The notes: generated by a model from the letters alone, not told the origin. A stretch of DNA of 64,000 bases from a bacterium (GCA_963675755.2 CAXXMD010000003.1:960001-1024000); one strand, 5' to 3'. Counted from the stretch's first letter, positions 8,220-63,649 are shown. A program made the numbers and translations.

Positions 8220-8406
8220 TAGTGAATTGGCACATGTCTGCCACATTTCTTCAATCCAATTCTATCTCTTGAAAATCATTATTTAAACCTATGATTCAGT
8301 TTTCACTTTTTGTGACACTATTGCTACACACCCAATTCTCCTTGGATATATCCGTTCAATAGATTATATTGTTACGCTTTTCCGAACAAACAATCAAAGA
8401 GAGAAT

Positions 8407-8958: not shown

Positions 8959-9071
8959 CCTGATAACACTAAAAAACAGCTCCATTTAACAATGAGTATA
9001 AACAGAATAACTATTTTTCTGTTTCATCCAATGGATTTAATTACTATCTTTTTTTATAAAATTGAATCAAA

Positions 9072-9764: not shown

Positions 9765-9777
9765 CACGGAGCCAGAT

Positions 9778-11028
9778 ATGAAAAGACGCCGGTTCATCCA
9801 AACTACAGCCATGGCTGCATTGTCGGGAGGAGTTATGCGTTGTACATCACCTGAAACTGAAACAGGACTCAGGTATGCCATATCTACACTCACCTCGGGT
9901 CCGCAGAACCATTTTTTCGGGTATTATGGCATCTGTCCCTGGAACGGCAAAGAGACAAAAATACTGTCATTACAGAGTCCTTTTCAGGACCATATGCCCG
10001 AGCCAAACGAACCGGCAGTGATTGGACTGGTGGATGCCAAGACCGGTGGGTTTTCACCCATAACCCAAACCCGCGCCTGGAACTTTCAACAGGGCGCCAT
10101 GCTGCACTGGCATCCCGCACATCTCAATTCAAAAATCCTCTTCAACGACCGTGAAAAGGATGAACTGGTCTCTGTGATTTATGATCTAAAAACATCCAAT
10201 CGTCGTGTATTACCCCGCCCCGTTAACGCAATGGGGCATCAGGGCAAACACGCCCTTTGCCTCACTTATGGACGTATGGGTCGTTTGCGTAAAGTTGTGG
10301 GTTACGCGGGCACAGTAGATCCAAATCCTAACGATCCGCACCCGGACAATGACGGTGTTTTTCTGATGGACCTTGAAACCGGTGAAACCAGACTGATTGT
10401 TTCCATCAAACAGGTGTACGAGATGCTGGTGCCTAAACATCCAGAGCTGAAAGAAAAACACATGTGGTTCAATCATGTGGTTTTTAATCCCTCCGACACC
10501 CGCTTCTTTTTTCTGGCGCGCATCCGACAAGACAATGGCAGGCTTGAGACCGGTATGTTTGCTGCGGATACGGATGGCGGAAACCTCACCGAGGTAGTGC
10601 CTTATGGCTCTAGCGTTTCCCATTTTGACTGGCGTAGTGATACCGAAATTGTAGCTACGTTTATTCACAATACCCCGGGAAGGGCACATTTTCTTTTAAC
10701 AGACGGAGATAACCATTTTGAGCATCTAGGTGGTGGTATGCTGGACTTTGACGGGCACTGCTCCTTTGGTCCCGATAAAAACTGGATGGTAACAGACCGC
10801 AATCTGGATGAAACTCTGGAAAAGTCTATAATTCTCTACAATCTCGCAACCCGTGAATACATTGAAATGGGCCGCATTAACATGCGTGATCGTCGTTTTT
10901 TCAGAGGAGACCTGCGCTGTGATCTGCATCCCCGTTGGAACCGCAGCGGCAACCAGATCTGCTTTGACGGTATTGCCAACGACGGTACCCGTCAACTGCA
11001 TCTTGTGAATTTAAATTTGGTGGCGTAA
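9778..11028 (+). CDS. Tat-exported beta-propeller protein, oligogalacturonide-lyase/TolB-like
   Basis: RRRF twin-arginine signal; HFFGYY, AWNFQQG and RCDLHPRW motifs. Confidence 0.7.
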   Translation: MKRRRFIQTTAMAALSGGVMRCTSPETETGLRYAISTLTSGPQNHFFGYYGICPWNGKETKILSLQSPFQDHMPEPNEPAVIGLVDAKTGGFSPITQTRAWNFQQGAMLHWHPAHLNSKILFNDREKDELVSVIYDLKTSNRRVLPRPVNAMGHQGKHALCLTYGRMGRLRKVVGYAGTVDPNPNDPHPDNDGVFLMDLETGETRLIVSIKQVYEMLVPKHPELKEKHMWFNHVVFNPSDTRFFFLARIRQDNGRLETGMFAADTDGGNLTEVVPYGSSVSHFDWRSDTEIVATFIHNTPGRAHFLLTDGDNHFEHLGGGMLDFDGHCSFGPDKNWMVTDRNLDETLEKSIILYNLATREYIEMGRINMRDRRFFRGDLRCDLHPRWNRSGNQICFDGIANDGTRQLHLVNLNLVA

Positions 11029-11039
11029 AGCAAAAAATT

Positions 11040-11250
11040 AACCGCTCGCTTTGCTCGATGAACACAGATAAACGCGGATAAATAAACACATTCCGGTCCT
11101 TTGATACATTTGCCCGGTACCATCAAGGTGCCGGGCAAATCACTATCTTTCATTCTTGATACAAGGCTCTGCCTTGTAACCCATGTCAACAAAAATCCCT
11201 TGATAACTAACTGGTTATGTGACAAACGTCCCAATCCAATATCCTGTGAT
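11040..11250 (+). repeat. Mosaic palindromic intergenic repeat, copy 1
   Basis: Modules GCTCGATGAACACAGATAAACGC, TACAAGGCTCTGCCTTGTAACC and TGTGACAAACGTCCCAATCCAATATCC recur in the same order at 20059-20264. It also contains hairpin ATTTGCCCGGTACC-ATCAA-GGTGCCGGGCAAAT (11108-11140). Confidence 0.8.
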
Positions 11251-39692: not shown

Positions 39693-41138
39693 TTATTGAA
39701 TTTTGTCTAATAAATTAAATCCCAATTTTATATATTCATTCGCGGCTATTGCCTGATTATTTGCCAGTGCCTGTTCAGCTCGCCGCAGCATTTTTTTCGC
39801 TTCAGTAACAAAATCTACATTTGTTTCAGTGTCTTCACGCGATTCATATTTATGAATCTCTTGTTCAAGCTGATCTGCTCTTGCTCGTACATCTTCCTGG
39901 TTAATCTTGACATCTGAAGCTGTTGAAGAAGCAGCATTTACAAAACGATTTCCCGCGTATATCATTTCAAGTGCCAATCGGGTGCGTCCTTCGCCAAGAT
40001 ATCTTTGAGCATCGTCAGCACTCGACTGTGCAGCTTTGAGCAATTCATTCCGGGTTCCGGTTCCGCTATTATCTTTTTGTCTGTCTATTTCATCACGCAA
40101 TCGTCCAAGTTCTTGCTCTACCCGGTCATTCATCTGAGCTGGCGTATTGCTCCAAAGGCGGGTCAACACATTCCTACCCAAAACAGCCCGTCGTATAGCA
40201 ATCTCGTATCGTTCTCCGTTCAATGCCGTATTGGCCTGTGTGTAAATCCGCTCAACTCGGTCCAGAACAAAACCAGCCTGTGAGCCGGATTGTACATTGA
40301 TTTCATTACGTGCTGTGTTTAACAACTCTCCAAGCATTTCCACTTCTTCAATAGCCTGTTCACGTATGGAAAAGCCCTGTCCCTGACAGAGATCTATAGC
40401 ACGCAGCAACAATCGGGTATTACTGTAATATAAGCCAATAGCAACTTTATAATTACCAGATTGAACTGCCTGTAATATATTGTGATATTGTTCTTTCGCC
40501 TGGTTGATCAGTTTTATAGCCTGTTCATCATTACAACTGCCGATCAGTTCCTCTGCACGATTGACGAGTTCCAGATATTTTTCTTTTTCTTCTTCAAGGG
40601 TTTCCGGATTCACCGTCAGACCTGATGTACGAACAAGCCCGATTGATCGCTCTGCGTAAAATTTTGCAACCCGAAAATGCTCCATAGCCTTTCGAGTCTG
40701 TTTATTCCGTAATGCGCGTATTCCGGCTTGACGGTTCTCTTTGGCCTGACTCAACATTCGTTCCGCTTCACGGTTATTCATTCCCGGAACTAGCTGCTCA
40801 GCATTCCGGATCAATTCATCTATCTGTTCCTGTATCCTGTCGACCGGAACGGCTGTAATACGATCAATGGCCTGATTTATCAGCACCAAAGCCGCTTTTA
40901 TCTTGGCGGTTGCCAGAGTGTTTCGTCCACGACTAAAAAAAGATACCGCCTCATCCCGCTGTCGAATAGCGCTATCAATCCATTGTTCAGCCTGACTGTC
41001 AGGAAACAACTTTAACAGCTCCTGTGCGGCATCGATTTTGGAATTCAACACATCTAAACCGTTTCTCGCGTTTTGCGCGTTAACAGCAGATACCAAAATC
41101 ATCAAGGCTAAAATTGTATATATTATTCTTTTCATCAT
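39693..41138 (-). CDS. Secreted/periplasmic all-helical protein with six ~75-aa repeats
   Basis: Signal peptide (..SAVNA); repeats such as QAEQWIDSA..A..G...A, EAERMLSQA, QAIKLINQA, QAGFVLDRV, NELLKAA and DFVTEA. Confidence 0.8.
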   Translation of the reverse strand: MMKRIIYTILALMILVSAVNAQNARNGLDVLNSKIDAAQELLKLFPDSQAEQWIDSAIRQRDEAVSFFSRGRNTLATAKIKAALVLINQAIDRITAVPVDRIQEQIDELIRNAEQLVPGMNNREAERMLSQAKENRQAGIRALRNKQTRKAMEHFRVAKFYAERSIGLVRTSGLTVNPETLEEEKEKYLELVNRAEELIGSCNDEQAIKLINQAKEQYHNILQAVQSGNYKVAIGLYYSNTRLLLRAIDLCQGQGFSIREQAIEEVEMLGELLNTARNEINVQSGSQAGFVLDRVERIYTQANTALNGERYEIAIRRAVLGRNVLTRLWSNTPAQMNDRVEQELGRLRDEIDRQKDNSGTGTRNELLKAAQSSADDAQRYLGEGRTRLALEMIYAGNRFVNAASSTASDVKINQEDVRARADQLEQEIHKYESREDTETNVDFVTEAKKMLRRAEQALANNQAIAANEYIKLGFNLLDKIQ

Positions 41139-41312: not shown

Positions 41313-43847
41313 TTATTGATGGAAAAAAGTATTCAACTCTGATAAAATCTGTTCCCGCGATGCAAAAACATTTTTGCACTCTGGCAACGATCTTAGAAAG
41401 CGTTTACCATAGCTTTTATTAATAACACGATTGTCAAAGATAATTACACATCCCCTGTCTGTTTTTCGTCTGATCAGACGTCCGAATCCTTGTTTAAATT
41501 TCAACACGGCAAGTGGTACCGCATATTCCATAAACGGATTCCCGCCATCTTTTTCAATGGCCTCATATCTTGCTTCTATTATGGGCTCACTGGGTACCTG
41601 GAACGGCAGCTTGGTGATGATTACCGATTCCAGCGCGTCTCCCTCTACATCCACACCTTCCCAAAAACTGTCTGTACCAAACAATACCGATGTTTTTTCC
41701 CGCTTGAACTGGTTCAAAAGATCATGACGGTTCATACTGCCCTGTTTTAATACACGAATACCATGCTCGGCTAAAGGTCCTTCGAGCTGTCTGAATATCA
41801 TGTTCAACAGCCCGAATGAAGTAAACAGCACAAAAGCCCGTCCTTCAGAGACCAACAGTGCATCCAAAACAGACTTGGACAGTTCAGACGCAAAATTTTG
41901 ACTACGTGGGTCCGGCATATCTTTGGGCACCGCCATGATGACCTGTTCCTTATAATTAAACGGAGCAGGCAATTGCGCGCAAATGTTTCGTTTTTCCTCT
42001 ACCAGCGTCAATCCCAATCGTTCACGAATGAAATCAAACTTGTTATCGCTGGTTAGCGTTGCGGATGTCATAATTATGGTTTCAAAAGTATCAAAAACTG
42101 CTTCTTTCATTACCTGGTCGATATGCAGAGGTGAAACCTGAAAATGCAAAATTGACCGGTTGCGATAGGCCGGCTTTGCCTCAATCCATCGGATATCTTC
42201 TTCGCTCGAATTGAACAGCACTTCGGTTAAAATATCTGCAGCAGCTTCTATACGCTCGGCATTGGCTTCAACTTCAATGAGATTATTTAGCATCTCTTCA
42301 CCGTCAGAACGAACACCGCGCTTGACAGTTTCCGTTAAACGTAACAGTACTGATGACAAAATTTTCAACTGCTGAATAAATTCTTTAAAATGCGCATCTA
42401 ATCCCGTATCATAAATCACCTGATCAACAATATGAGGAAGCAGGCGCAGCTTGATTTCCTTTTCATCCAGAACACCGGTTTTTTGCTCTCGGGTCTGCAA
42501 AACCTGATAGAGCGAGTCCATAAGCTCGTCATTCATTGCAGCGATCTGTTCAATCAGATCAACCAGCTCTCCATCAATGGTCATGATAATTCGCTGCACA
42601 ATGTCGTCCGGTACAGCCGCTTTTTTTGATAATAAACGATGTTTTAATGTATGCAGATGCCCCTTGTAAATCGCTTTTTTACGACGGTGCAAACGGTTCA
42701 ATATACGCACCAAGCCCGCACGGGTAACCCGGCTGCCAAAATAGTGGGTTGCAACATGCTCCAGATGATGGGCTTCATCAAATACAATAGCCTGGTATGG
42801 AGGTAATATAGCAGCGTCGGCAAAGCTGCCGGTTTGCCGGCGTACCGCAAGGTCGGCAAATAACAGATGATGGTTCACCACCAGTATATGCGCTCGAGCG
42901 GCTTTACGACGGGCCTTGTTCACAAAACATTCACGAAAATATTTACACCGGCTGTGCGTACAGGTATCACTTTCAGCGGCAATTTTTTCCCATACTGTTG
43001 CGGAAGGAATGACCGAAAGGTCCGCTTTACTGCCGTCTTGAGATTGCCTTGCCCAATGGATCAGCTCCTGCAGCTCTTCAATCTCATGCTCTTCCGCAAG
43101 GGCTGCAAAGTCAGATTCTACATCATCCGCTTTGCGCAGACAGACATAATTGGAACGTCCTTTAACCAGCACAGCCTCAAATTCAGGGTCCAGTGCCTTT
43201 TGCAGTAACGGGATGTCTTTGTTGATCAATTGCTCTTGCAGATTAATTGTATTGGTAGATACTACAACTCGTGTTTTGTTTCGAACGGCCCAATAAATGG
43301 CAGGTACAAGATACGCCATGGTTTTTCCGGTACCGGTCCCTGCTTCTATCAATGCAATTTTTTTCTCGTTATACCCCGCACAAATAGAACTCAACATATC
43401 AATTTGCTGCTGGCGCTCTTCAAATCCATTAATGTGCCGGGCAATGGGACCTTCTTTTTGTAATAACGCTTCCATCTCTTGCAGATCCAGCAAGACTTTG
43501 TCGCGCTTGGCAAAAGGTTCAACCACTACGTATACATCATCTACATCATTGTTAACGATATAAAAAGCAACGCTGAAAGAATCGAGTCCCGAAGCAATAT
43601 TCAGATCGGGTGATGAGGGTTTGAGCATACCTGAGGGATGATTGTGAATGACAACATCCGCCTCCCGCGCAATTTTTAGGATAGCCGGTACGGCAGATTC
43701 GTTTCCCCGTGCAACAGCGTCTACTTTGTGAACAATCAAATCTTCTTCGGTATACCCTACAAAAAAGACTTCATTGCCGCCAGCTTCGGCAATAGCTTGC
43801 CGCATGGTTTCGATCGCTTCCGGGGATATATATTTTTCTATATTCAA
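41313..43847 (-). CDS. DinG/XPD-family Fe-S helicase with N-terminal JAB/MPN (RadC-like) domain
   Basis: N-terminal NEVFF...HNHPSG..KPS..D; EAGTGTGKT, Cys cluster (CLRK...CTHSRCKYFREC), DEAH, SATL, SFWEGVD and QGFGRLIR. Confidence 0.93.
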   Translation of the reverse strand: MNIEKYISPEAIETMRQAIAEAGGNEVFFVGYTEEDLIVHKVDAVARGNESAVPAILKIAREADVVIHNHPSGMLKPSSPDLNIASGLDSFSVAFYIVNNDVDDVYVVVEPFAKRDKVLLDLQEMEALLQKEGPIARHINGFEERQQQIDMLSSICAGYNEKKIALIEAGTGTGKTMAYLVPAIYWAVRNKTRVVVSTNTINLQEQLINKDIPLLQKALDPEFEAVLVKGRSNYVCLRKADDVESDFAALAEEHEIEELQELIHWARQSQDGSKADLSVIPSATVWEKIAAESDTCTHSRCKYFRECFVNKARRKAARAHILVVNHHLLFADLAVRRQTGSFADAAILPPYQAIVFDEAHHLEHVATHYFGSRVTRAGLVRILNRLHRRKKAIYKGHLHTLKHRLLSKKAAVPDDIVQRIIMTIDGELVDLIEQIAAMNDELMDSLYQVLQTREQKTGVLDEKEIKLRLLPHIVDQVIYDTGLDAHFKEFIQQLKILSSVLLRLTETVKRGVRSDGEEMLNNLIEVEANAERIEAAADILTEVLFNSSEEDIRWIEAKPAYRNRSILHFQVSPLHIDQVMKEAVFDTFETIIMTSATLTSDNKFDFIRERLGLTLVEEKRNICAQLPAPFNYKEQVIMAVPKDMPDPRSQNFASELSKSVLDALLVSEGRAFVLFTSFGLLNMIFRQLEGPLAEHGIRVLKQGSMNRHDLLNQFKREKTSVLFGTDSFWEGVDVEGDALESVIITKLPFQVPSEPIIEARYEAIEKDGGNPFMEYAVPLAVLKFKQGFGRLIRRKTDRGCVIIFDNRVINKSYGKRFLRSLPECKNVFASREQILSELNTFFHQ

Positions 43848-53005: not shown

Positions 53006-54289
53006 TTATCTCAAATACATCTGTAATTCGTACATGGATTGAGGATAATAGAATCGATAATCGCCAAAGCCAGTCTTGTCTACAAATTCAAACCTGCGGT
53101 TCAATCTGTAATAATTCCAGATCTCCCAGGGACGCATATCGCTTGGGTATGGATCACGTGCAATATCATCCGGCGGACCCAGCAAAACATACAGCATACC
53201 CCGATCTGTTCTCCAGCCCTCGCGCTGCATTACGGAAAAATAACGGTTTGCAAATTCAATACGCCCATAATGCGCATCCATTGCCTCATTCACTTCTGTT
53301 CCCGGAGTTGGATCGTGACGTTTCCAAAACTTTTTAAACTCTTCCATCTTTTCATCATCCGGGGCTTTTTTCAACAACTTCCACTCACCAGGAGTTGCAA
53401 TATACTCGATCTGACGAATTGCCATATCCAGGTTTTGTGCGGTTCCGGGTAAACCTTCCATCCGGATAAAGAAATTTTTCTCTTCTTTTGCTTTTTTCCC
53501 GCCGGCTTTTACTTCAAGCCTGAACTCATATCCATCCGGGGGTAAAGAATCTATTGGCAATTCTATTGAGGCCAGCGTACGGCTGCCAGTCAAATCAATT
53601 GAATACTCGTCTTTCAATTCCAACTTGGCATTTATCGCATCAATCTCGTATTTTATTTCAGCAGTGGCAGCATCTGTCTGATTATAAATCTCAAAAAAAG
53701 CAAAAGCGGGTGGATTCAATCCTTTAGCTACATTGGTAACCGTTGGAGAGATGCTTTTAATGCCCGCGGAATCAATCTCAATATCTTTGAGATATGCAAT
53801 ATCAGACAACATCACTTTATCTTTTGTAAACTCTTTTAATTTGAGCTTAAATTTTATCGCATAGCTCTTTTCAGATTCAAGATCCTGAACAGAAACTGCA
53901 GCCATATATTCATCAGGTTCCAGATCAAACTGGGCATGTGTAGAGCTGTACATATTCAGCGAATTGGTCTCATCAAATCGTTCTACAAGCAACTCTTCTT
54001 TCCAAATCTTCCCATCAACCTGAAATTCATCATCATCATAAATGACCATTGTCACTTCATACTTAGCTTCAAATCCACTGTCTTTTTTGATAAATTGCAA
54101 ATCATCATACTTGACTTCTACATAGACATTTATCCTGCTCAATTCAGGGTTATCCGGAACCGCAACATTCACAACATCTACATTATAAGGCATCTCAATC
54201 CTGGCAGTTGTACGTGTCATATTAGGTTGAGCATATATTAAAGACAGAGAAAATAACACAATTACAGATAGTCTCTTCATTACTTTCAT
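53006..54289 (-). CDS. GWxTD domain-containing protein
   Basis: FWKRHDPTPGT..NE, RIEFAN, GWRTDRG..Y...GPPD and EIWNY motifs; signal peptide. Confidence 0.92.
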   Translation of the reverse strand: MKVMKRLSVIVLFSLSLIYAQPNMTRTTARIEMPYNVDVVNVAVPDNPELSRINVYVEVKYDDLQFIKKDSGFEAKYEVTMVIYDDDEFQVDGKIWKEELLVERFDETNSLNMYSSTHAQFDLEPDEYMAAVSVQDLESEKSYAIKFKLKLKEFTKDKVMLSDIAYLKDIEIDSAGIKSISPTVTNVAKGLNPPAFAFFEIYNQTDAATAEIKYEIDAINAKLELKDEYSIDLTGSRTLASIELPIDSLPPDGYEFRLEVKAGGKKAKEEKNFFIRMEGLPGTAQNLDMAIRQIEYIATPGEWKLLKKAPDDEKMEEFKKFWKRHDPTPGTEVNEAMDAHYGRIEFANRYFSVMQREGWRTDRGMLYVLLGPPDDIARDPYPSDMRPWEIWNYYRLNRRFEFVDKTGFGDYRFYYPQSMYELQMYLR

Positions 54290-54355: not shown

Positions 54356-55645
54356 TCATTCCGACAACTTGGCATGCAAATCATAAATATCGGCGTTTGT
54401 AATTTTTACATTCACAATATCACCAATGTTAGCTGATACTGGCAAAGGTATTAATACAGAGTTGTCTATTTCAGGTGCGTCCCACTGTGTTCTGCCGATC
54501 GCTGCATTGATCTCTGTATCAATTTCATCGATGATTACCGGAATCTTTTTGCCAATCAGCTCCTTATTCTTTAAATACGTTATCTCTGCCTGAAGTTCCA
54601 TAATTTCGTTTTTGCGTTGTTCTTTTACATCCGCAGGTATATCATCCGGCAATTTATATGCACGTGTACCTTCTTCATGCGAATAGGTAAATGCACCAAG
54701 TCGTTCAAACCTAAATTCTTGCACAAAATCCAGCAATTCCAGATAATTATCTTCCGTTTCACCAGGATACCCGGTAATTACCGTAGTACGTAACATCAAT
54801 TCGGGTATCTCTTTACGCATTTGACGAATCAGAGTCTCAATTTGTTTACGTGTCACGTTCCGGCCCATAGCTTTTAAAATGGGGTCGGATATATGCTGAA
54901 CGGGTAAATCGATATACTTTACTACTTTATCCAGTTCTGCTATTGTGTGGATAAATGAATCCTGCCAATGTGCGGGATGCGTATACAATAGCCTGATCCA
55001 TTCAAGGCCATCAAGAGCGTTCAGCTCTCGGAGCAATGCGTCTAATCCTTTTGATTGATCGAGATCTCTGCCATACATGGTTGTGTCTTGCGCAACCAGC
55101 ATGATCTCACGAACTCCTGCCGAAACCAGGTTTTGCGCTTCATTCATTATACTATCGTATGGTCTGCTCACAAAATCGCCCTTAATCAGAGGAATTGCGC
55201 AATAACTGCAGCGATTGTTACAACCTTCGGCTATTTTTAAATATGCAAAATGAGAAGGCGTTATACGTAACCTTTCCAACTGTTCAACATAGGGCAGACT
55301 CAGGCTTTTATTGAGATTTCTAAGTGTTGTGGCAATCTCGGTTGTATCAAAATACTCGTCAACCTGGGGAATCTCTTTGCGGAGTTCATCTTTGTAACGC
55401 TGAGGCAAACATCCTGATACAAACACTTTGAATTGGGGATTATCTTTTTTTTGCTCAACGGCTTCCAGAATTTTATCAATAGATTCCTGTTTGGCGTCAT
55501 CAATAAATGCACAGGTATTGATAATTACTGCGTCTGCCTGCTCAACCAGATCGACAATCTCCACCCCTTCGCCTATTCCACCCAGAATAAATTCCAGATC
55601 GATCTCGTTCTTGGGACACCCCAAACTTATATATGATAGTTTCAC
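54356..55645 (-). CDS. rimO: Ribosomal protein uS12 methylthiotransferase
   Basis: SLGCPKN, NTCAFI, AYLKIAEGCNNRCSYCAIP and DAPEID (TRAM) motifs. Confidence 0.95.
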   Translation of the reverse strand: MKLSYISLGCPKNEIDLEFILGGIGEGVEIVDLVEQADAVIINTCAFIDDAKQESIDKILEAVEQKKDNPQFKVFVSGCLPQRYKDELRKEIPQVDEYFDTTEIATTLRNLNKSLSLPYVEQLERLRITPSHFAYLKIAEGCNNRCSYCAIPLIKGDFVSRPYDSIMNEAQNLVSAGVREIMLVAQDTTMYGRDLDQSKGLDALLRELNALDGLEWIRLLYTHPAHWQDSFIHTIAELDKVVKYIDLPVQHISDPILKAMGRNVTRKQIETLIRQMRKEIPELMLRTTVITGYPGETEDNYLELLDFVQEFRFERLGAFTYSHEEGTRAYKLPDDIPADVKEQRKNEIMELQAEITYLKNKELIGKKIPVIIDEIDTEINAAIGRTQWDAPEIDNSVLIPLPVSANIGDIVNVKITNADIYDLHAKLSE

Positions 55646-56553
55646 TGAAACAATGCCTCTACAAAAAGGTCAGCATCAAATTCCTGCAGATCGTCTATCT
55701 GCTCTCCTAAACCAATATAACGGACCGGTATACCCAGTTCCTTAACAATTGAAAATACAATTCCGCCTTTGGCGGTTCCATCCAGTTTAGTCAGTACTAT
55801 ACCCGTAATATTAACAGATTCTGCAAATTTCTTGGCCTGCACCAGCCCATTCTGTCCGGTGGTAGCATCCATAACCATTAACACTTGATGAGGAACATTT
55901 GGATTTTGCCTTTGAATAACCCGATGGATCTTGTCCAGCTCGGCCATCAGGTTCACTTTGGTATGCAGCCTGCCAGCGGTATCAATAATCAATACATCCA
56001 TATCTTTGGCAACAGCTGAATTATATGCATCGTACGCAACAGACGCCGGATCAGCACCTGTTTGGGGTTGAATGACTTCAGAAGCGGTTCGCTCAGCCCA
56101 AACACACAGTTGCTCAATTGCAGCCGCTCTGAACGTATCTGCAGCTGCCAGCATTACTTTTTTGTTCTGTTGTTTTAGAATATTGGCAAGTTTACCTATA
56201 GTCGTTGTTTTTCCGGTACCATTTACGCCAATAACACTGATCACATGTGGTCGCTGGCTCATATCAATCGATTGTTCCGGAAGATCCTTGAATACCTGGG
56301 CAAGTTCTCTTTTTAAAAGATTGATTACATCATCAGAGGATTTTATCGGTTCCCGTTTGCTTTTTTCTTCAAGATTTTCAATAATCTTTTCAGAGGTTTC
56401 AACACCTACATCACTCAAAATCAACAATTCTTCAAGCTCTTCCAGCACATCGCGGTCAATTTTTTTGCCCAGTGTTACAACATTTTGAATATTGTCTACA
56501 AAACCGGCCTTTGTCTTGGCAAGGCCTTTTTTTAATTTATCTGCTAAACCCAA
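55642..56553 (-). CDS. ftsY: Signal recognition particle receptor FtsY
   Basis: GVNGTGKTTT, DTFRAAA, DTAGR and TKLDGTAKGG motifs. Confidence 0.97.
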   Translation of the reverse strand: MGLADKLKKGLAKTKAGFVDNIQNVVTLGKKIDRDVLEELEELLILSDVGVETSEKIIENLEEKSKREPIKSSDDVINLLKRELAQVFKDLPEQSIDMSQRPHVISVIGVNGTGKTTTIGKLANILKQQNKKVMLAAADTFRAAAIEQLCVWAERTASEVIQPQTGADPASVAYDAYNSAVAKDMDVLIIDTAGRLHTKVNLMAELDKIHRVIQRQNPNVPHQVLMVMDATTGQNGLVQAKKFAESVNITGIVLTKLDGTAKGGIVFSIVKELGIPVRYIGLGEQIDDLQEFDADLFVEALFQ

Positions 56554-56564
56554 TTCTCATTTCC

Positions 56565-57176
56565 TTACTTGCTCTTGTAAATATTTTCAATTCTTTCTTT
56601 CAGCTTTACAGATTTTCTGATAATGGTTTCCATATGATTAAAAAAGTAGATTATTAATGAAAAAGGTATCAGAAAAATAGAAATCCACAAAGCAATCTCT
56701 TTTGCAATGGGGACCTGAAGTGTGTATAAAATGATAACCAATGCCAGAAATGTTGCTGTAAATTTACCCGGCATGTTAGATTCCATAATGGTTCTTTTGC
56801 GCTTGATAACCAGCATACTGCCCAGAAGGATAAAAAAATCACGTCCAATAACAATGGCAACAAACCAGGCAGGCAATCCCTTTTTCATGGCAAGCAGCAG
56901 CATAACCGAGGCTACACTCAGCTTGTCAATCAACGGGTCAAGTAATCGACCCAGTTGAGACGTCATGTTCAATTTCCGGGCAAAAAATCCATCCAGAAAA
57001 TCGGTAAAACTGGCCAGCAGCATAAACAGCAGGGCCAACCGATCTCCCGTCGTGGTGCCCATCCATAAAAAATACAAAACAAAGGGTAAAAAACCCAATC
57101 GGCTCAAAGTTAAAATATTCGGTAGTCCAAAAACATTCTTGTCTTCCGCAAGCAGTTCCCTAATACTGGATTTCAT
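56565..57176 (-). CDS. CDP-alcohol phosphatidyltransferase (PgsA-like)
   Basis: LPNILTLSR; TDFLDGFFAR.......GRLLDPLIDK signature. Confidence 0.92.
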   Translation of the reverse strand: MKSSIRELLAEDKNVFGLPNILTLSRLGFLPFVLYFLWMGTTTGDRLALLFMLLASFTDFLDGFFARKLNMTSQLGRLLDPLIDKLSVASVMLLLAMKKGLPAWFVAIVIGRDFFILLGSMLVIKRKRTIMESNMPGKFTATFLALVIILYTLQVPIAKEIALWISIFLIPFSLIIYFFNHMETIIRKSVKLKERIENIYKSK

Positions 57177-57185
57177 AAAACCCTC

Positions 57186-58358
57186 TTAGGTAAAGACTTT
57201 GATTGCCTCGAGAATTAATGATGGCTTTTTGACCATTGCTGACTTGAACAGACCTAAAATACTTCTTTTTTCCATAGGTAAATCCAGAATTACTTTTGCA
57301 GTATCATCAAGGTCTTTGTCACTCATATTATACACAAATTCTTTTAATTTATAAAATATTTTATTCTTTTTTCCTTCAGAATTATGCCATAATTTTTGAT
57401 ATTCGCTGAGTCGCTTTGCTGTAAAATTCTTTTCCTGTACCGCCTTACCGGCAACAATACCCGCAAATTTACCGGCCACCATACCATTCACAATACCACC
57501 TCCCGAAACCGGATTCACCTGTCTTGCGGCATCACCAACGAGCATTAATCCATCAGCATAAATTTCGTCCTGTTCAAGGCTACAAGGATCTCCGCCAACC
57601 ACAGTTGTAATAATTGCTGCGTTTGGAAAATACTCTTTCATAAACTCTTCAAGATACTGGTACACACTCTTGTCTTTTGAAGCCTCACCTGAAATACCCA
57701 AACCTACATTTGCCAATCCATTCCCTTTGGGGAACACCCACAAATACCCTTTGGGGGCGATTGAGCTTGAAAAATAAAAATGACAATAGTTCTCATCCAG
57801 ATCAATATTTTGAGCTGTATACTGTGCGCAGGTTTCCATATCTTTCATGGGAACACGGGTTTTTAATCCGGCCCAACGGCCAACGCGTGACTCTACACCA
57901 TCCGCACCAATTACAATATCAGCGAATATTTCATATTCGTTGCCAAGATGTTTTACTTTAACGCCAGCAACTTTTTCATCTTTGATAATAAGATCGTAAA
58001 CATAAGCTTTTGTTATTATTTCAGCACCTTCTTTGGCGGCAAGTTCTGCAAGTCCCTGATCAAACTTTTTGCGATTCAACACATATCCAACTTCTTTTGA
58101 ATCAACTTTAACTTCCATGCCTGACGGCGAGTACAGCATAACACCGGTAATTTTTTGATCAATCCATTGGGGTTCCAGCTTGTCCAATACGGTTAATACG
58201 CCTTTTTCACCCACACCTTCCGCGCAGCGAACAGGAACACCTACTTCACGGTCTTTTTCAAGCATCAATACAGACGCTCCTGATTGAGCAGCAAAACGAG
58301 CTGCCGTAGAACCCGCAGGGCCGGCGCCAACGACTATAACATCATATTTATTCTTCAT
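57186..58358 (-). CDS. Geranylgeranyl reductase family FAD oxidoreductase, archaeal DGGGPL-reductase-like
   Basis: Start at MKNKYD; GAGPAG, PVRCAEG, PKGYLWVFPKG (PxxYxWxFP) and GLMLVGDAA...GGGI motifs. Confidence 0.9.
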   Translation of the reverse strand: MKNKYDVIVVGAGPAGSTAARFAAQSGASVLMLEKDREVGVPVRCAEGVGEKGVLTVLDKLEPQWIDQKITGVMLYSPSGMEVKVDSKEVGYVLNRKKFDQGLAELAAKEGAEIITKAYVYDLIIKDEKVAGVKVKHLGNEYEIFADIVIGADGVESRVGRWAGLKTRVPMKDMETCAQYTAQNIDLDENYCHFYFSSSIAPKGYLWVFPKGNGLANVGLGISGEASKDKSVYQYLEEFMKEYFPNAAIITTVVGGDPCSLEQDEIYADGLMLVGDAARQVNPVSGGGIVNGMVAGKFAGIVAGKAVQEKNFTAKRLSEYQKLWHNSEGKKNKIFYKLKEFVYNMSDKDLDDTAKVILDLPMEKRSILGLFKSAMVKKPSLILEAIKVFT

Positions 58359-58530
58359 CTTTAGCCTCCAATGCGCGTATCGGACAGATATATACACAAT
58401 TCATACAAACCGTACATTTATCTGTAATTTCCAGATCATTTTCTGACAATTCAATTGCATCATGAGGGCAAACACCCACACAGGTGCCGCAAAAATCGCA
58501 TAATTCACGATTATAAATAATTTTTTTCAT
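58348..58530 (-). CDS. 2[4Fe-4S] ferredoxin
   Basis: CDFCGTCVGVCP and CTVCMNCVYICP; stop overlaps the reductase start. Confidence 0.92.
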   Translation of the reverse strand: MKKIIYNRELCDFCGTCVGVCPHDAIELSENDLEITDKCTVCMNCVYICPIRALEAKDEE

Positions 58531-58540
58531 AAGTTATCCC

Positions 58541-59500
58541 TTATTTCATGCTCAAACTTGGGTAAACAATATTAAATCTCTTTTTATAATACCATTTTGA
58601 AAAATAGAATACAAATACAATTAATACCAGATACAGTGGGAAACGATAACAAATAACCAACGAAAGAAACAATGCAGCGAATTTATTGGTAGTGAGTATA
58701 TGTTTGACTGACTGGTTCAGGGTTGTAAAAATAAAAAATGGCAAAATCAACAGCGTGGGAATTAAAACAATAATATCGCGAGTCAATAGTCCAAAGACAA
58801 TGGCAATAACATCAGAAATCAATCCACCCCATATTGCTGCCTTGGCACCATATTTTACCGCAACCGTTATCTTTTCAGAGGCTTTATCACCCTCTATGTC
58901 GGGTATAGTGGTGTAAAAATAGACTGCCATCATGCCCAGAATATAGGGAGCACCGTAATATATCATATTCCATTGTGGCTGACCTTGTATCATCCATCCA
59001 AAAGAAAACACAATGAATCCACCAAAAAAATTGGGCAAAAATCCACCAATGGGTTTGTTTTTCATGACCAATGGTTTGCAGCTATACATCCAACCCATTA
59101 TAATATAGGCCAATATCATTACAACCGCCAATGGCCAATAAACAAACGCCAAAATCCCGATTGGCAAAACAGTCAACAAGATCGTTTCAATATAGGCGTT
59201 TACCAGTTTGATATCACCATTTGCAATGAGAAACAACTTTTTATTTAACCGGTCAGTTTCTACATCTTCAATTTGGTTTACAAGAAAAACCGCTCCCATC
59301 AAAAGCGTAAATAATCCCAGATATACAAAAACGGAAATATCAAAATCCGCAATCACAACCAGCCTTGCTGGTTGTGATGCAGATAATATATCGAAACGAT
59401 TCTGTGCCCATACACCGGCAAGCGCAATTGTCCAAACCGGAAAAAACAATGTCGGACGTAATACAAAAATATAGTCCAGAAATTTCAAACCCTTATTCAT
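58541..59500 (-). CDS. UbiA-superfamily prenyltransferase
   Basis: Start at MNKGL; LRP, NQIEDVETDRLN (NxxxDxxxD) and PDIEGD motifs; multi-TM. Confidence 0.88.
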   Translation of the reverse strand: MNKGLKFLDYIFVLRPTLFFPVWTIALAGVWAQNRFDILSASQPARLVVIADFDISVFVYLGLFTLLMGAVFLVNQIEDVETDRLNKKLFLIANGDIKLVNAYIETILLTVLPIGILAFVYWPLAVVMILAYIIMGWMYSCKPLVMKNKPIGGFLPNFFGGFIVFSFGWMIQGQPQWNMIYYGAPYILGMMAVYFYTTIPDIEGDKASEKITVAVKYGAKAAIWGGLISDVIAIVFGLLTRDIIVLIPTLLILPFFIFTTLNQSVKHILTTNKFAALFLSLVICYRFPLYLVLIVFVFYFSKWYYKKRFNIVYPSLSMK

Positions 59501-59549
59501 AAAAAACCACCAGTACGGGGGCCCCCGCATTTATGTAAAGATACTGTTA

Positions 59550-60977
59550 TCAGGAATTTTTTGACTGCTTTACAGATTCATGTTGAAACTTGCCTATTTT
59601 TTCCTCAATAGGAATGGGATAATCTCCCGTAAAGCAAGCAGTACAAAATCCATTTTCAGGAGAAACTGAACTCATCAATCCTTCTTTTGACAAATAGTGA
59701 ATACTGTCGCATCCCAGGTATTCACCAATTTCCTGAACGGATCTGTTATTAGCAATCAACTCTTCTTTACTTGGAAAATCCATACCATAAAAACAGGGTG
59801 AAGTTATAGGGGGTGAACTGACCCGAATATGCACTTCTTTGGCACCAGCCTGACGAATCAATTTCACCAACTGACGAAGTGTTGTTCCACGGACAATAGA
59901 GTCTTCAACCACAACAACGCGCCTGCCCTGTAAAATACCGCGGACTGCATTGAATTTTATACGAACGCTGAAATCTCGCATATTTTGTTTAGGGTGAATA
60001 AAGGTCCTGCCTATATAATGATTACGGATGAGGCCCAGCTCAAATTTAATATTTGATCTGCGAGAAAATCCCACAGCAGCGGTATTGCTCGAGTCCGGAA
60101 CAGAAATTACAATATCCGCTTCTGTTGGCAGCTCTAACGCCAAATTTTTTCCGAGTTTTCTACGGACCTTGTCCACATTTTCATTAAAGATCATACTATC
60201 GGGTCTGGAAAAATAGATAAATTCGAATATACAAGAATGTTTTTTCTTGCCCATATTGACTTTATGAGAAACCAACCCTTCGGCACTAATTTCTATCAAT
60301 TCACCGGGTTCGACATCTCGAATATATTCAGCTCTCACAATATCCAAAGCACAGGTTTCTGAAACAACAAACCAGGCATTACCTTTTTTGCCAATACACA
60401 AGGGCCTGACACCATGAGGATCGCGGGTAGCAAAGATACGATCTTTGGTCAACATGATCAATGAAAATGCTCCGTGGATCTGGTTCAATGCATCAATAAC
60501 CTTGGCGGAAAACTTTCTTTTTTTTGATCGAGCAATCAAGTGTGCAACAACTTCAGTATCTGTAGTGGTCTGAAAAATAGATCCTTCTTGTTCAAGACTT
60601 TCTCTCAAACCACCTGAATTTGTAAAATTCCCATTATGGCTTATTGCCAAAGGACCATCTTTACCGGTAAGCAGCAAAGGTTGGGCATTGATTAAATGGG
60701 TTGAACCTGTTGTGGAATATCGATTGTGCCCAATAGCAATATGCCCTTGAAGGTAATCAAAAATTTTCGGATCAGAATACACATCTGAAACCAATCCCTG
60801 GGCCACATGACGTCTTACTTGTTCACCGTCACTGCTTACAATACCCGAGCTCTCTTGTCCTCTATGCTGTAATGCATATAATCCCAGGTAACTGTAATGT
60901 GCCGCGTTTTTATCTCCAAAAACTCCAACAATACCACAGTTGGATTCTGGCTTGTCTAATTCTCTTTGTTGATTCAT
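59550..60977 (-). CDS. purF: Amidophosphoribosyltransferase
   Basis: Propeptide then CGIVG; LQHRGQES, GHNRYST, EDSIVRGTT and CTACFTG motifs. Confidence 0.98.
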   Translation of the reverse strand: MNQQRELDKPESNCGIVGVFGDKNAAHYSYLGLYALQHRGQESSGIVSSDGEQVRRHVAQGLVSDVYSDPKIFDYLQGHIAIGHNRYSTTGSTHLINAQPLLLTGKDGPLAISHNGNFTNSGGLRESLEQEGSIFQTTTDTEVVAHLIARSKKRKFSAKVIDALNQIHGAFSLIMLTKDRIFATRDPHGVRPLCIGKKGNAWFVVSETCALDIVRAEYIRDVEPGELIEISAEGLVSHKVNMGKKKHSCIFEFIYFSRPDSMIFNENVDKVRRKLGKNLALELPTEADIVISVPDSSNTAAVGFSRRSNIKFELGLIRNHYIGRTFIHPKQNMRDFSVRIKFNAVRGILQGRRVVVVEDSIVRGTTLRQLVKLIRQAGAKEVHIRVSSPPITSPCFYGMDFPSKEELIANNRSVQEIGEYLGCDSIHYLSKEGLMSSVSPENGFCTACFTGDYPIPIEEKIGKFQHESVKQSKNS

Positions 60978-62745: not shown

Positions 62746-63255
62746 TTAAAACGGAATTGCCAGAGTAAACTGGTATACAGCATATCGATTATTAGCATAA
62801 ATATCTTGTTCATGTTTCATTTGCATACTAACATTTGGGCTGTCATCAAAATCAGCAAGATGTGCATCTACAAATGCATCGGTCACACTATATAATACTA
62901 CACCAGCCAGCCACCAAATTGCCAGGCTTCGGTTTTCACGGTAAAATTCTTTGTCATAATAATAATCAGACTCTTGTGCCCATTGATTCTGCACAATAGC
63001 GTCAATGACTAATCCGACTTCAGTACCACCAATAACCAATCCTTTGAACCACTTTCCATTATAAAACTGCCCTCCTCCCGGAAGAACCAAAGATCGGAGC
63101 ATAGCTCCGCGGGGAGAGCGTGACATTAGTGTATCCTGCACAACAGATACACTATCTGCAGTTAAGGAATCAGTTGAAGTAATGGTCAGCGTTTGTGCAG
63201 AAGAAATTAAGGGGGAAATGACAAACACTATCAAAATCAGAAAGAGCTGTTTCAT
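62746..63255 (-). CDS. DUF5683-domain protein
   Basis: Start at MKQLF; PRGAMLRSLVLPGGGQFYN and DAFVDAHL motifs. Confidence 0.8.
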   Translation of the reverse strand: MKQLFLILIVFVISPLISSAQTLTITSTDSLTADSVSVVQDTLMSRSPRGAMLRSLVLPGGGQFYNGKWFKGLVIGGTEVGLVIDAIVQNQWAQESDYYYDKEFYRENRSLAIWWLAGVVLYSVTDAFVDAHLADFDDSPNVSMQMKHEQDIYANNRYAVYQFTLAIPF

Positions 63256-63259
63256 CACG

Positions 63260-63649
63260 CTAACCGGCCACCTCGGCAATCGCTTCAATCTCAACAAGTC
63301 CATTTGCAGGAATTTTTCCAGCCTGTAAGGCCAATCTGGCTGGTGGCTCTGTTGGGAAAAAATCAGAATATACAGCATTCATAGCTGCAAAATCTTCAAT
63401 TCTTTGCAGAAAAATAGTTACCTTTAAAACATGATCCATATCTGATCCGGCTGCCAGCAATATTTGTTTAATATTTTCCATGGCCTGACGGGTTTGGTCT
63501 CCCACATTATCTGAAACCAACACACCACTTTTCGGATCAAAACCCAATTGACCTGCGACAAAAATCAGCCCGGCTTTTTCAGATACAACTGCCTGACTAT
63601 AATGCGCCTGAGGCATTGGGGCGTTTTCAGTACTTATAATTTTTTTCAT
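63260..63649 (-). CDS. RidA/YjgF family reactive-intermediate deaminase
   Basis: YSQAV, FVAGQ, FAAMNAVY, PPAR and VEIEAIA motifs. Confidence 0.93.
   Translation of the reverse strand: MKKIISTENAPMPQAHYSQAVVSEKAGLIFVAGQLGFDPKSGVLVSDNVGDQTRQAMENIKQILLAAGSDMDHVLKVTIFLQRIEDFAAMNAVYSDFFPTEPPARLALQAGKIPANGLVEIEAIAEVAG

Follow-up and report, generated by a model that had tools for sequence, protein, structure and literature searches.

A UbiA-type prenyltransferase, a ferredoxin and an archaeal-type geranylgeranyl reductase encoded side by side in a KSB1 bacterium: a possible accessory module of isoprenoid lipid synthesis

Results

The cassette lies on the minus strand of the window (the whole stretch of DNA that was analysed, 64,000 nucleotides), in a KSB1 (Zhuqueibacterota) genome that is 98% complete. 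In the direction of transcription, the upstream context gene, outside the lipid module, is purF, encoding amidophosphoribosyltransferase (59550..60977; TIGR01134, 514 bits against a cut-off of 350). It is followed by a UbiA-superfamily membrane prenyltransferase, here called UbiAx (58541..59530), a ferredoxin of 60 aa (58348..58530), an archaeal-type geranylgeranyl reductase with FAD (GGR; 57186..58358, the longest ORF reaching 58397) and a PgsA-like CDP-alcohol phosphatidyltransferase (56565..57176), and then by the context genes ftsY (55642..56553; TIGR00064, 362 bits against 260.7) and rimO (54356..55645; TIGR01125, 495 bits against 357). From purF to ftsY the genes overlap or are separated by 9-49 nt: 19 or 49 nt between purF and UbiAx, 10 nt between UbiAx and the ferredoxin, 9 nt between GGR and the CDP-alcohol transferase, and 11 nt between the latter and ftsY. 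The ferredoxin gene runs 11 nt into the GGR gene, whose likely ATG, at 58358, is preceded by GGAGG at a distance of 6 nt; a further overlap, of 4 nt, joins ftsY and rimO. At 0.36-0.43, the G+C content of the region is in line with that of the genome (0.39-0.40). The four cassette genes are real and co-directional, and their packing is tight enough for co-transcription with the housekeeping neighbours. An earlier note on this DNA had described this tight run from purF to ftsY, and the motifs it quoted can be read in the translations (NQIEDVETD and DIEGD in UbiAx, PVRCAEG and PKGYLWVFP in GGR).

The ferredoxin carries two CxxCxxCxxxCP motifs and scores above the cut-offs of PF00037 (52.5 bits), PF12838 (42.6 bits) and PF13187, as a 2x[4Fe-4S] ferredoxin should; it is the presumed electron donor of the GGR. 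The reductase is a clear member of its family (TIGR02032, 235.8 bits against 158.8; PF22578 GGR_cat, 103.2 bits against 27), and together with GAGPAG, LVGDAAR and RKKFD the two motifs given above complete the set listed for GGRs in PMC10821996 (GxGxxG, catalytic Cys, PxxYxWxFP, LxGD, RxxFD). The proposal that it is of the archaeal DGGGPL-reductase type held up well: its best solved relative is the DGGGPL reductase of Thermoplasma acidophilum (3oz2, 267 bits), and it scores 312 bits on NF041160 compared with 134 bits on BchP/ChlP and 78 bits on MenJ. It falls under the cut-offs of the DGGGPL-reductase equivalogs, which are lineage-specific archaeal models (NF041160, 312 against 780; NF041080, 197 against 580; NF041385, 121 against 700). 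No other GGR_cat match occurs in the genome. According to the account in PMC10821996, small 4Fe-4S proteins adjoin euryarchaeal GGRs, and the GGR of Methanosarcina acetivorans needs the neighbouring ferredoxin in vivo; the translationally coupled pair found here resembles such loci, as the earlier note had supposed.

The longest ORF of UbiAx encodes 329 aa; translation more likely begins at M11 (59500), for a product of 319 aa, and the database form starts there too. The protein belongs to the UbiA superfamily by its Pfam score (PF01040, 75.5 bits against 34.2), its Asp-rich motifs and its multi-helix membrane fold. In an alignment with 50 relatives, N75, D79, D83, Y139, D201 and D205 are invariant and K147 is at least 90% conserved, and these positions correspond to the motifs that PMC9385802 lists for MjDGGGPS (two Asp-rich motifs, Asn and Y...K). 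The AF2 model (pLDDT 93.6) has ten long helices and is matched by Foldseek with a probability of 1.00 to 4tq3, 6m31, 4od5 and 8djk, the closest folds being AfUbiA and MjDGGGPS (target-normalised TM 0.66-0.72). In profile comparisons with solved structures, AfUbiA scored 79 bits, chlorophyll synthase (9sau) and MjDGGGPS 64 bits each, and DPPR synthase 41 bits. NCBIfam models of several kinds match the members of the alignment (PRK12884 49/50, BchG 48/50, ChlG 45/50, HPT 45/50, DGGGPS 43/50), and no NCBIfam model scores above 47 bits on UbiAx itself. Of the UbiA paralogues in the same genome, the nearest by hhalign is DGGGPS-like (E = 2.9e-13), followed by MenA (1.9e-8), a DPPRS-like protein (6e-6) and heme O synthase (0.026). 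By sequence and profile, UbiAx forms a subfamily of its own, an orphan, within the DGGGPS/chlorophyll-synthase/homogentisate-phytyltransferase part of the superfamily, and it is predicted to have a conserved tenth, C-terminal helix. UbiA enzymes cluster by acceptor (Hemmi et al., quoted in PMC9385802), and the separate clade of UbiAx therefore hints at a different acceptor.

For the CDP-alcohol transferase the family given by the earlier note was confirmed (PF01066, 117.9 bits against 22; DxxDGxxAR...G...D...D in the translation), whereas its place in the cassette became doubtful, as it is a second PgsA-like paralogue with a weak link to the other genes. On the pgsA equivalog TIGR00560 it scores 103.6 bits, slightly under the cut-off of 109.1, and a canonical pgsA lies elsewhere (C3:1593362-1594012, 122 bits). 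Of the 65 loci whose downstream sequence extends for at least 3.5 kb, 44 have it, all in the KSB1-type ftsY context except two (L131 and L140). Nine loci with the UbiAx-ferredoxin-GGR triad and ftsY lack it, and so do 11 of the 13 loci at which the triad stands without the ftsY context. Since the adjacency is confined to KSB1, the transferase is only weakly linked to the module.

A search of the genome for the remaining ether-lipid genes, as suggested in the earlier note, gave a mixed outcome. A GGGP synthase is present (GGGPS; TIGR01769, 220 bits against 161.55; NF003198, 291 bits against 247), which runs counter to the refuting condition set in the earlier note. Neither CarS (no PF01864 match in the genome) nor the G1P dehydrogenase EgsA/AraM was found; of seven PF13685 matches in the genome, six classify as AroB or iron alcohol dehydrogenases, none classifies as a G1P dehydrogenase, and the seventh is interrupted by a stop codon. 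The genome also encodes a bacterial CdsA, which is argued in PMC7852524 to be able to replace CarS, two trans-prenyl diphosphate synthases, MenA (360 bits) and a DPPR-synthase-type UbiA paralogue, the last two as separate genes. The DGGGPS-like UbiA paralogue (L003; 281 aa, C3:1988905-1989750) is 970 kb from the cassette and the GGGPS 100 kb; these two genes are not co-localised.

UbiAx, ferredoxin and GGR are adjacent in 60 of the 69 informative loci, which come from KSB1, Marinimicrobia and other FCB lineages; at the other nine both the ferredoxin and the GGR are missing downstream of UbiAx, and one without the other was seen at none of the 69. The three genes occur together at 15 of 20 KSB1 loci, and 13 loci that also have all three, from Marinimicrobia and other FCB lineages, lie outside the ftsY context of KSB1. 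Of the 72 loci whose upstream sequence extends for at least 1.8 kb, 59 have purF next to UbiAx. Across 151 KSB1 genomes (including the unpublished genomes G088 and G144), GGGPS was found in 143, the DGGGPS-like paralogue in 141, a UbiAx orthologue in 141 and GGR_cat in 147. Of 121 Marinimicrobia genomes sampled, 51 had UbiAx, 96 GGGPS and 107 the DGGGPS-like paralogue. Where UbiAx is present in this sample, GGGPS and GGR each accompany it in 49 of 51 genomes, with the GGR adjacent on the same contig in 47 according to a comparison of tables, while GGGPS is found in 47 of the 70 genomes that have no UbiAx.

The earlier note had likened the prenyltransferase to the archaeal DGGGP synthase, and the scores speak against this. 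UbiAx reaches 31 bits on NF009521 and 47 bits on NF009523, and on the DGGGPS equivalogs (NF009521, NF009522, NF009512) its 31 bits stand against a cut-off of 296. The distant paralogue scores 218 and 238 bits on NF009521 and NF009523, and although it is also under the equivalog cut-off, it comes far closer than UbiAx and is as widespread as GGGPS. Because the genome has this better candidate elsewhere, UbiAx would be dispensable for making DGGGP. It is highly doubtful that UbiAx is nevertheless a functional DGGGP synthase, with the 281-aa paralogue having another role or the two being redundant isozymes that differ in chain-length or stereochemical preference. The position next to a reductase that would saturate DGGGP-derived lipids, MjDGGGPS being among the nearest folds, the full set of catalytic motifs and the near-universal presence of both UbiAx and GGGPS in KSB1 would suit such an enzyme. 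However, in Marinimicrobia it is the paralogue that tracks GGGPS, UbiAx being found in less than half of the genomes, and some genomes hold GGGPS, the paralogue and the ferredoxin-GGR pair with no UbiAx at the locus. In addition, the FCB homologues of DGGGPS are described in PMC7852524 as close to the enzymes of TACK archaea, which suits the paralogue and not an orphan family.

The cassette had also been placed inside a bacterial core operon; it did not enter such an operon by insertion but is an old, vertically inherited portion of a synteny block common to KSB1 and Marinimicrobia (DUF5683, snf, yfiM, purF ... dinG-like helicase). Adjacency is weaker evidence here than usual, as synteny extends over the whole block in two phyla and takes in the functionally unrelated purF. 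The UbiAx half and the ferredoxin-GGR half are separable, each occurring without the other. In 18 KSB1 genomes (families f8 and f9) UbiAx is kept and GGR_cat matches are weak only (E 1e-6 to 1e-10); at all three f8/f9 loci inspected (L047, L048 and L050) the ferredoxin-GGR pair is absent. Conversely, 5 of the 10 inspected Marinimicrobia loci have the ferredoxin and the GGR with no room for a UbiA gene. It could be argued from this separate survival, and from the equal synteny of purF, yfiM, snf, DUF5683 and the dinG-like helicase, which have no functional tie, that the adjacency is a historical accident, that UbiAx serves an unrelated process such as cell-envelope polyprenyl chemistry, and that the functional unit is the ferredoxin-GGR pair alone; the absence of fusions between UbiAx and its partners among the proteins searched points, weakly, the same way. 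We consider this improbable, as two isoprenoid-lipid enzymes 10 nt apart amid housekeeping genes are unlikely to be there by chance, Marinimicrobia genomes with two GGR copies (G230 and G252) have one copy adjoining UbiAx, and envelope chemistry would be served by the DPPR-synthase-type paralogue.

Discussion

The cassette probably has a part in producing saturated isoprenoid lipids like those that had been predicted in related bacteria. More specifically, and tentatively, the sequence comparisons point to a ferredoxin-driven saturation module with an accessory C20 prenyltransferase in the ether-lipid pathway that was earlier proposed for FCB bacteria. The 2x[4Fe-4S] ferredoxin would supply the FAD of the archaeal-type GGR with electrons of low potential, and the GGR would saturate the double bonds of C20 isoprenoid chains, the model being the GGR and ferredoxin of M. 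acetivorans. UbiAx would be an active Mg2+-dependent, ten-helix membrane prenyltransferase of the DGGGPS/chlorophyll-synthase/homogentisate-phytyltransferase branch that takes a geranylgeranyl or phytyl (C20) chain from the corresponding diphosphate and attaches it to a membrane-bound acceptor. Glycerol-phosphate lipids would be the likeliest acceptors, for example GGGP or a mono-substituted glycerophosphate related to it; UbiAx would then be a third, accessory prenyltransferase in the FCB ether-lipid pathway and not the canonical DGGGPS. The GGR may act either on the donor or on the product of UbiAx. In KSB1 the PgsA-like neighbour may put a glycerophosphate head group on the CDP-activated product. 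This proposal is weakest where it names an acceptor for UbiAx and gives a role to the PgsA paralogue.

The acceptor could also be something other than a glycerolipid, for example an aromatic head group, a quinone- or tocopherol-like compound or another small molecule, with the ferredoxin and the GGR supplying phytyl diphosphate or saturating the side chain later, and the ether-lipid genes elsewhere in the genome being a separate matter. In plants and cyanobacteria, ChlG or HPT is paired with a GGR-family reductase (ChlP/BchP). The ChlG, BchG and HPT models match 45-48 of the 50 alignment members, about equal to the DGGGPS models, chlorophyll synthase scores the same as MjDGGGPS among the solved structures, and the ether-lipid step is already covered by the separate DGGGPS-like gene. 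The grouping of UbiA enzymes by acceptor, as reported in PMC9385802, would also fit a subfamily with its own substrate. Still, we regard a non-glycerolipid acceptor as rather unlikely. There is no true 4-HPPD in the genome (27 bits against a cut-off of 277), and tocopherol cyclase was unmatched there, although this is a weak control, the family being above its cut-off in 0 of 14 control genomes. MenA is a separate gene and more distant from UbiAx than the DGGGPS-like paralogue, and phototrophy is not ascribed to KSB1 in what PMC11683472 reports on the phylum. The company of UbiAx points in the same direction, GGGPS being found in nearly all Marinimicrobia with UbiAx compared with about two thirds of those that lack it.

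Returning to the saturation module with an accessory prenyltransferase, a bolder version is that UbiAx represents a new acceptor class, placing the C20 chain on a substrate other than GGGP, such as an acyl- or alkyl-glycerophosphate. Saturation by the ferredoxin and the GGR and addition of a head group would then give a hybrid bacterial-archaeal core membrane lipid in KSB1 and many Marinimicrobia. Such a lipid is an unlikely product on the present comparisons, and if it were made, mixed membranes would occur naturally through a dedicated enzyme and not through the promiscuity of imported archaeal enzymes.

Whether archaeal-type or mixed membranes are truly made by any bacteria matters for the "lipid divide" and for the interpretation of isoprenoid ether biomarkers from sediments. 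For FCB bacteria, the set of GGGPS, DGGGPS and GGR is already published. What the locus adds is that the same gene set is near-universal in a whole uncultured phylum, KSB1, that the reductase has its own ferredoxin, as in Euryarchaeota, and that a third, uncharacterised prenyltransferase family stands directly 5' of the ferredoxin-GGR pair in at least two phyla. The UbiAx family thereby offers a concrete candidate, open to cloning, for an unknown step; should UbiAx prove to be a quinone enzyme or a redundant DGGGPS, the locus would be ordinary.

Comparison with known systems

The closest known system is the set of archaeal-type ether-lipid genes described by Villanueva et al. (2021, PMC7852524) and Coleman et al. 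(2019, PMC6431249) for Ca. Cloacimonetes and further FCB bacteria. As the earlier note had stated, FCB bacteria with GGGP and DGGGP synthases are in print, and those with GGGPS, DGGGPS and GGR are proposed in these papers as possible makers of archaeal-type lipids. The likeness extends to GGGPS, a DGGGPS homologue, an archaeal-type GGR, bacterial CdsA and PgsA, and the lack of CarS and of G1P dehydrogenase. In contrast, a third UbiA-type gene or a ferredoxin adjacent to the GGR is not mentioned in the parts of these papers that were consulted, and KSB1 is named once in PMC6431249, in a table list.

Chlorophyll synthase and homogentisate phytyltransferase, together with ChlP/BchP, likewise combine a C20 prenyltransferase of the same branch with a GGR-family reductase, and their HMM similarity to UbiAx is comparable to that of DGGGPS. 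They differ in that no phototrophy or tocopherol genes were detected here and that the present GGR is archaeal-type, scoring 312 bits compared with 134 bits for BchP/ChlP.

The GGR and ferredoxin of M. acetivorans (Isobe et al. 2014 and Ogawa et al. 2014, via PMC10821996 and PMC7852524), compared by description, share with the present pair a small ferredoxin gene, whose product is presumably the specific donor of electrons, directly 5' of a GGR with PxxYxWxFP, LxGD and RxxFD. Here, however, the host is bacterial, an orphan UbiA gene lies 5' of the pair, and the nearest solved GGR is that of T. acidophilum, whose reducer is given as NADP in PMC10821996.

With MjDGGGPS (6m31/7bpu) and the UbiA homologue of A. 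fulgidus (4tq3-4tq6), UbiAx has in common the UbiA fold, the N-terminal amphipathic helix, the two Asp-rich motifs, Y...K and the conserved Asn, but the identity in structural alignments is just 17-20%, and its 31 bits on the DGGGPS equivalogs are far under the cut-offs of 296-353. The motif spacing also differs, UbiAx having NQ..D...D..N.K and Y-x7-K where DGGGPS has N.P-type spacing and Y-x5-K. Beyond both enzymes, UbiAx has the tenth helix, at whose end stands a conserved Y-Y-x-x-R-F...Y-P tail, in which R308, F309 and P314 are invariant.

Results

Pfam and NCBIfam models gave the gene order purF, a UbiA-family gene, a 60-aa ferredoxin, a geranylgeranyl reductase (GGR), a CDP-alcohol phosphatidyltransferase, ftsY and rimO, all genes between 54.3 and 61.0 kb of the window being on the minus strand. 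The earlier note had described an archaeal-style isoprenoid lipid cassette packed into a core operon, and the genes, their order and their packing were borne out, as was the presence in the translations of every motif quoted there. From purF to rimO the genes are separated by 9-49 nt or overlap, and the ferredoxin stop overlaps the likeliest GGR start by 11 nt (ATG at 58358, with GGAGG six bases upstream). A scan with consensus promoters and terminators placed no terminator in the short gaps between genes, its promoter and terminator counts were not clearly above those of shuffled sequences (37 vs 29±6; 13 vs 8±3), and Rfam had no match within the window. Recent horizontal insertion of the cassette was rejected, because the G+C content of the region equals that of the genome and the gene order is common to KSB1 and, in part, to Marinimicrobia.

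The locus is part of a run of about 37 kb (26013-63378) in which nearly all ORFs of at least 200 aa are on the minus strand. The scanned part of this run (39.7-63.4 kb) is almost all housekeeping, with DUF5683, an SNF-type Na+ symporter, a YfiM-like lipoprotein, purF, the cassette, ftsY, rimO, a GWxTD protein, an LD-carboxypeptidase, purN, purH, mreB, a class A PBP, pdxS and a DinG-like helicase. The GWxTD-domain protein (427 aa, 53006-54289, minus strand; TIGR04514, 114 bits) directly follows rimO and keeps its synteny with the cassette across all of KSB1, and a 481-aa ORF of the same strand (39693-41138) had no Pfam match at E <= 1e-6.

The genome encodes no GGR_cat protein other than the cassette's GGR. 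Residues 17-397 of this GGR align with the digeranylgeranylglycerophospholipid reductase of Thermoplasma acidophilum (3oz2) at 267 bits, and the Sulfolobus enzyme gave about 107 bits. Archaeal DGGGPL-reductase models scored 312 bits, which is under the cut-offs of these lineage-specific models, against 134 bits for BchP/ChlP and 78 for MenJ, and the set of archaeal-GGR motifs listed in PMC10821996 is complete (GxGxxG, the catalytic Cys, PxxYxWxFP, LxGD and RxxFD). The same paper describes small 4Fe-4S proteins adjoining GGRs in several Euryarchaeota and a requirement in vivo of the M. acetivorans GGR for its adjoining ferredoxin (PMC10821996). Among the 69 collected loci with enough sequence, ferredoxin and GGR were both found downstream of the UbiA-family gene in 60, neither in nine and one alone in none; the two behave as a single unit in the collected loci.

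When the UbiA-superfamily prenyltransferase of the cassette (UbiAx) was searched exhaustively with HMMER against 1.84 billion cluster representatives, 862 proteins matched at E <= 1e-3, of which 142 reached E <= 1e-30; the family is small and distinct. Those relatives of UbiAx that are named carry the label Zhuqueibacterota or candidate division KSB1, an uncultured phylum that belongs to the FCB superphylum (PMC11683472). Across 50 aligned members the residues of the Asn and two Asp-rich motifs (N75/D79/D83 and D201/D205) do not vary, nor does Y139, and K147 is conserved in at least 90%, and matching catalytic motifs of MjDGGGPS are described in PMC9385802. The AlphaFold model is confident (pLDDT 93.6) and has a short N-terminal helix, nine transmembrane helices and two cap regions. 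A tenth hydrophobic helix ends in a conserved aromatic/basic tail, in which R308, F309 and P314 are invariant, and this helix should return the tail to the membrane face on which the active site lies.

The top Foldseek matches of UbiAx were the A. fulgidus UbiA homologue and MjDGGGPS (17-20% identity), and against solved structures the family profile gave 79 bits with AfUbiA, 64 each with chlorophyll synthase and MjDGGGPS, and 41 with DPPR synthase. Matches of the 50 alignment members to NCBIfam models, all far under the model cut-offs, were most frequent for PRK12884 (archaeal prenyltransferase, 49/50) and BchG (48/50), followed by ChlG and homogentisate phytyltransferase (HPT; 45/50 each), DGGGPS (43/50) and the best MenA model (33/50). 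Five UbiA-superfamily genes are present in the genome and four are readily named: heme O synthase, MenA, a decaprenyl-phosphate phosphoribosyltransferase-like (DPPRS-like) protein and a DGGGPS-like paralogue (281 aa). The last is nearest to UbiAx in hhalign (E 2.9e-13; 26% identity over 148 residues), and MenA (1.9e-8), the DPPRS-like protein (6e-6) and heme O synthase (0.026) are more distant. As with the GGR, placement of UbiAx was by HMM, profile and fold comparisons, and these indicate that it belongs to the branch in which the known enzymes transfer C20 chains to non-quinone acceptors, outside the characterised families of that branch.

The earlier note had considered UbiAx as a possible DGGGP synthase. 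UbiAx reached only 47 bits on NF009523 (archaeal prenyltransferase) and 31 bits on NF009521 (DGGGPS), where the DGGGPS-like paralogue scored 238 and 218 bits, and it meets no curated family; that UbiAx is the true DGGGPS seems very improbable. A non-glycerolipid acceptor, after the manner of ChlG or HPT, would agree with the matches to chlorophyll synthase and HPT models and is somewhat unlikely. Against a tocopherol-like route, no true HPPD was found and no tocopherol cyclase was found, the latter being a weak negative, as none of the control genomes gave a cyclase match above the cut-off either.

Open frames of 644-777 aa in KSB1 family f23, which resembled UbiAx-GGR/purF fusions, were rejected as spurious frames of a G+C-rich genome, and this family has separate UbiAx, ferredoxin and GGR ORFs. 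No fused "Rosetta stone" form of UbiAx was present among proteins of 560-2000 aa, which is weak evidence.

The earlier note had pointed out that GGGP synthase, G1P dehydrogenase and CarS are absent from the window. The window spans 960001-1024000 of contig C3 of the host assembly. In this assembly (6.48 Mb, three contigs, 98% complete) a GGGP synthase (GGGPS) was found about 100 kb from the cassette (TIGR01769, 220 bits vs cut-off 161.55), CarS was not found, and none of the six intact Fe-ADH_2-type proteins was a G1P dehydrogenase. The surroundings of GGGPS and of the DGGGPS-like gene were uninformative (neighbours alaS, CpsB-like, NIF3, dtd and maf). CdsA is present, likewise two trans-prenyl synthases and six CDP-alcohol transferases, including a canonical PgsA (122 bits vs cut-off 109.1) and two PIP-synthase-like proteins. 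With this canonical copy elsewhere in the genome, the transferase of the cassette (103.6 bits) is a second PgsA-like paralogue.

The CDP-alcohol transferases at positions 854322-854978 and 772932-773660 of contig C3 gave 127-157 bits on archaetidylinositol-phosphate/phosphatidylinositol-phosphate synthase models, under the cut-offs, which hints at inositol phospholipids in the host bacterium. On contig C2 (913394-913738) a PssA-like CDP-alcohol transferase match is broken by TAA, which leaves an ORF of only 114 aa; the gene may have decayed to a pseudogene, or the assembly may be at fault here.

Among 151 KSB1 genomes (the four tallies include the unpublished G088 and G144) UbiAx was found in 141 (E <= 1e-20), GGR_cat in 147 (E <= 1e-3), GGGPS in 143 (E <= 1e-10; 141 above the curated cut-off) and the DGGGPS-like paralogue in 141 (E <= 1e-30). 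Twenty KSB1 loci from about 17 families were compared: 15 have yfiM-purF-UbiAx-Fd-GGR-(CDP-OH transferase)-ftsY-rimO-GWxTD, four have UbiAx and then the CDP-OH transferase without the ferredoxin-GGR pair, and one has UbiAx alone. Three of these four (L047, L048 and L050) belong to families f8 and f9, in which the GGR_cat matches of 18 genomes are all weak (E 1e-6 to 1e-10), and the genome of the fourth (L051, family f25) encodes a GGR at another site. The f8/f9 lineages, having lost ferredoxin and GGR from the locus, with only weak GGR_cat paralogues, retain UbiAx together with the CDP-alcohol transferase and GGGPS and, in most cases, the DGGGPS-like gene (tallies including the unpublished G088); their isoprenoid lipids, if made at all, might be unsaturated.

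A wider scan, in which each GTDB species was represented by a single genome, gave 80 loci with the labels KSB1, Calditrichota, Neomarinimicrobiota/Marinimicrobia, WOR-3 and "FCB group", among others; it shares genomes in part with the 20-locus set, so that the counts are not independent, nor are related genomes independent samples. Thirteen UbiAx-ferredoxin-GGR triads lie outside the ftsY context, and in the Marinimicrobia-type loci inspected a DinG-like helicase-exonuclease directly follows the GGR. From the phylum of one such triad, Marinimicrobia, 121 genomes were sampled and overlaps taken by table comparison: UbiAx was found in 51 (an undercount at E <= 1e-30), GGGPS in 96, GGR in 98 and the DGGGPS-like paralogue in 107. 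The 51 genomes with UbiAx had GGGPS, the DGGGPS-like gene and GGR in 49 cases each, and in 47 the GGR was within about 1.3 kb of UbiAx on the same contig. Ten UbiAx-"negative" genomes were inspected: five had no room for a UbiA gene, ferredoxin and GGR directly following purF, yfiM or snf, and one had an unassigned 0.9-kb gap. The other four (loci L148, L149, L151 and L153 of genomes G233, G258, G205 and G213) had a very divergent UbiA-like ORF of 22-29% identity in the same slot, upstream of ferredoxin and GGR. The UbiAx family is thus broader than the profile threshold shows.

Discussion

DUF5683, snf, yfiM, purF and, further on, a dinG-like helicase form an old synteny block, and purF, which is functionally unrelated, adjoins UbiAx in 59 of 72 loci; therefore adjacency alone proves little. 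UbiAx and the ferredoxin-GGR pair are also each found without the other. The position of UbiAx directly upstream of ferredoxin and GGR in two phyla nevertheless argues for a shared pathway, as does the fact that UbiAx and GGR are both isoprenoid-lipid enzymes, and we consider it quite unlikely that the adjacency is accidental. The CDP-alcohol transferase is an uncertain member of the module, because it is found at 44 of 65 loci and is missing both from nine triads of the KSB1 type and, where the ftsY context is lacking, from 11 of 13 triads.

DUF5683 upstream and the DinG-like helicase downstream flank the cassette in KSB1 and Marinimicrobia alike (41313-43847 and 62746-63378 of the window; 4202-4603 and 8335-11157 of locus L141), the helicase being 13 kb from the cassette in KSB1 and its immediate neighbour in Marinimicrobia. 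The block would accordingly have existed before the two phyla diverged.

Since it is the DGGGPS-like paralogue whose distribution follows that of GGGPS, and UbiAx is the less general of the two, UbiAx would be an accessory third prenyltransferase. In the mechanism that we tentatively propose, with a chance of being right as a whole that is a little short of even, the ferredoxin would reduce the FAD of GGR, and GGR would saturate C20 isoprenoid chains. UbiAx would transfer geranylgeranyl or phytyl to a glycerophosphate lipid in the membrane, a reaction that would be a variant step in the ether-lipid pathway of FCB bacteria or branch off from it. After activation by CdsA, the head group may be attached by the PgsA paralogue in KSB1.

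No literature on a bacterial UbiA-ferredoxin-GGR cluster was found in the searchable main text of open papers, and the words lipid, isoprenoid and geranylgeranyl do not occur in the text of the Zhuqueibacterota paper PMC11683472. Coupling of ferredoxin and GGR in bacteria, phylum-wide conservation in KSB1, and the UbiAx family with its fixed place upstream of ferredoxin and GGR were likewise not found in these texts. The supplements of PMC7852524 (the GGR tree of Fig. S15b and co-localisation tables) and of PMC6431249 may already hold the GGR context or KSB1 entries. The idea of the FCB pathway and the archaeal-type GGRs of bacteria are already published (PMC7852524), and in the survey of Coleman et al. 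(PMC6431249) each of the 12 FCB phyla had orthologues of GGGPS and DGGGPS. The gene complement described here is the same as the pattern published for Ca. Cloacimonetes (PMC7852524): GGGPS, DGGGPS, an archaeal-type GGR and bacterial CdsA and PgsA, with neither CarS nor G1P dehydrogenase.
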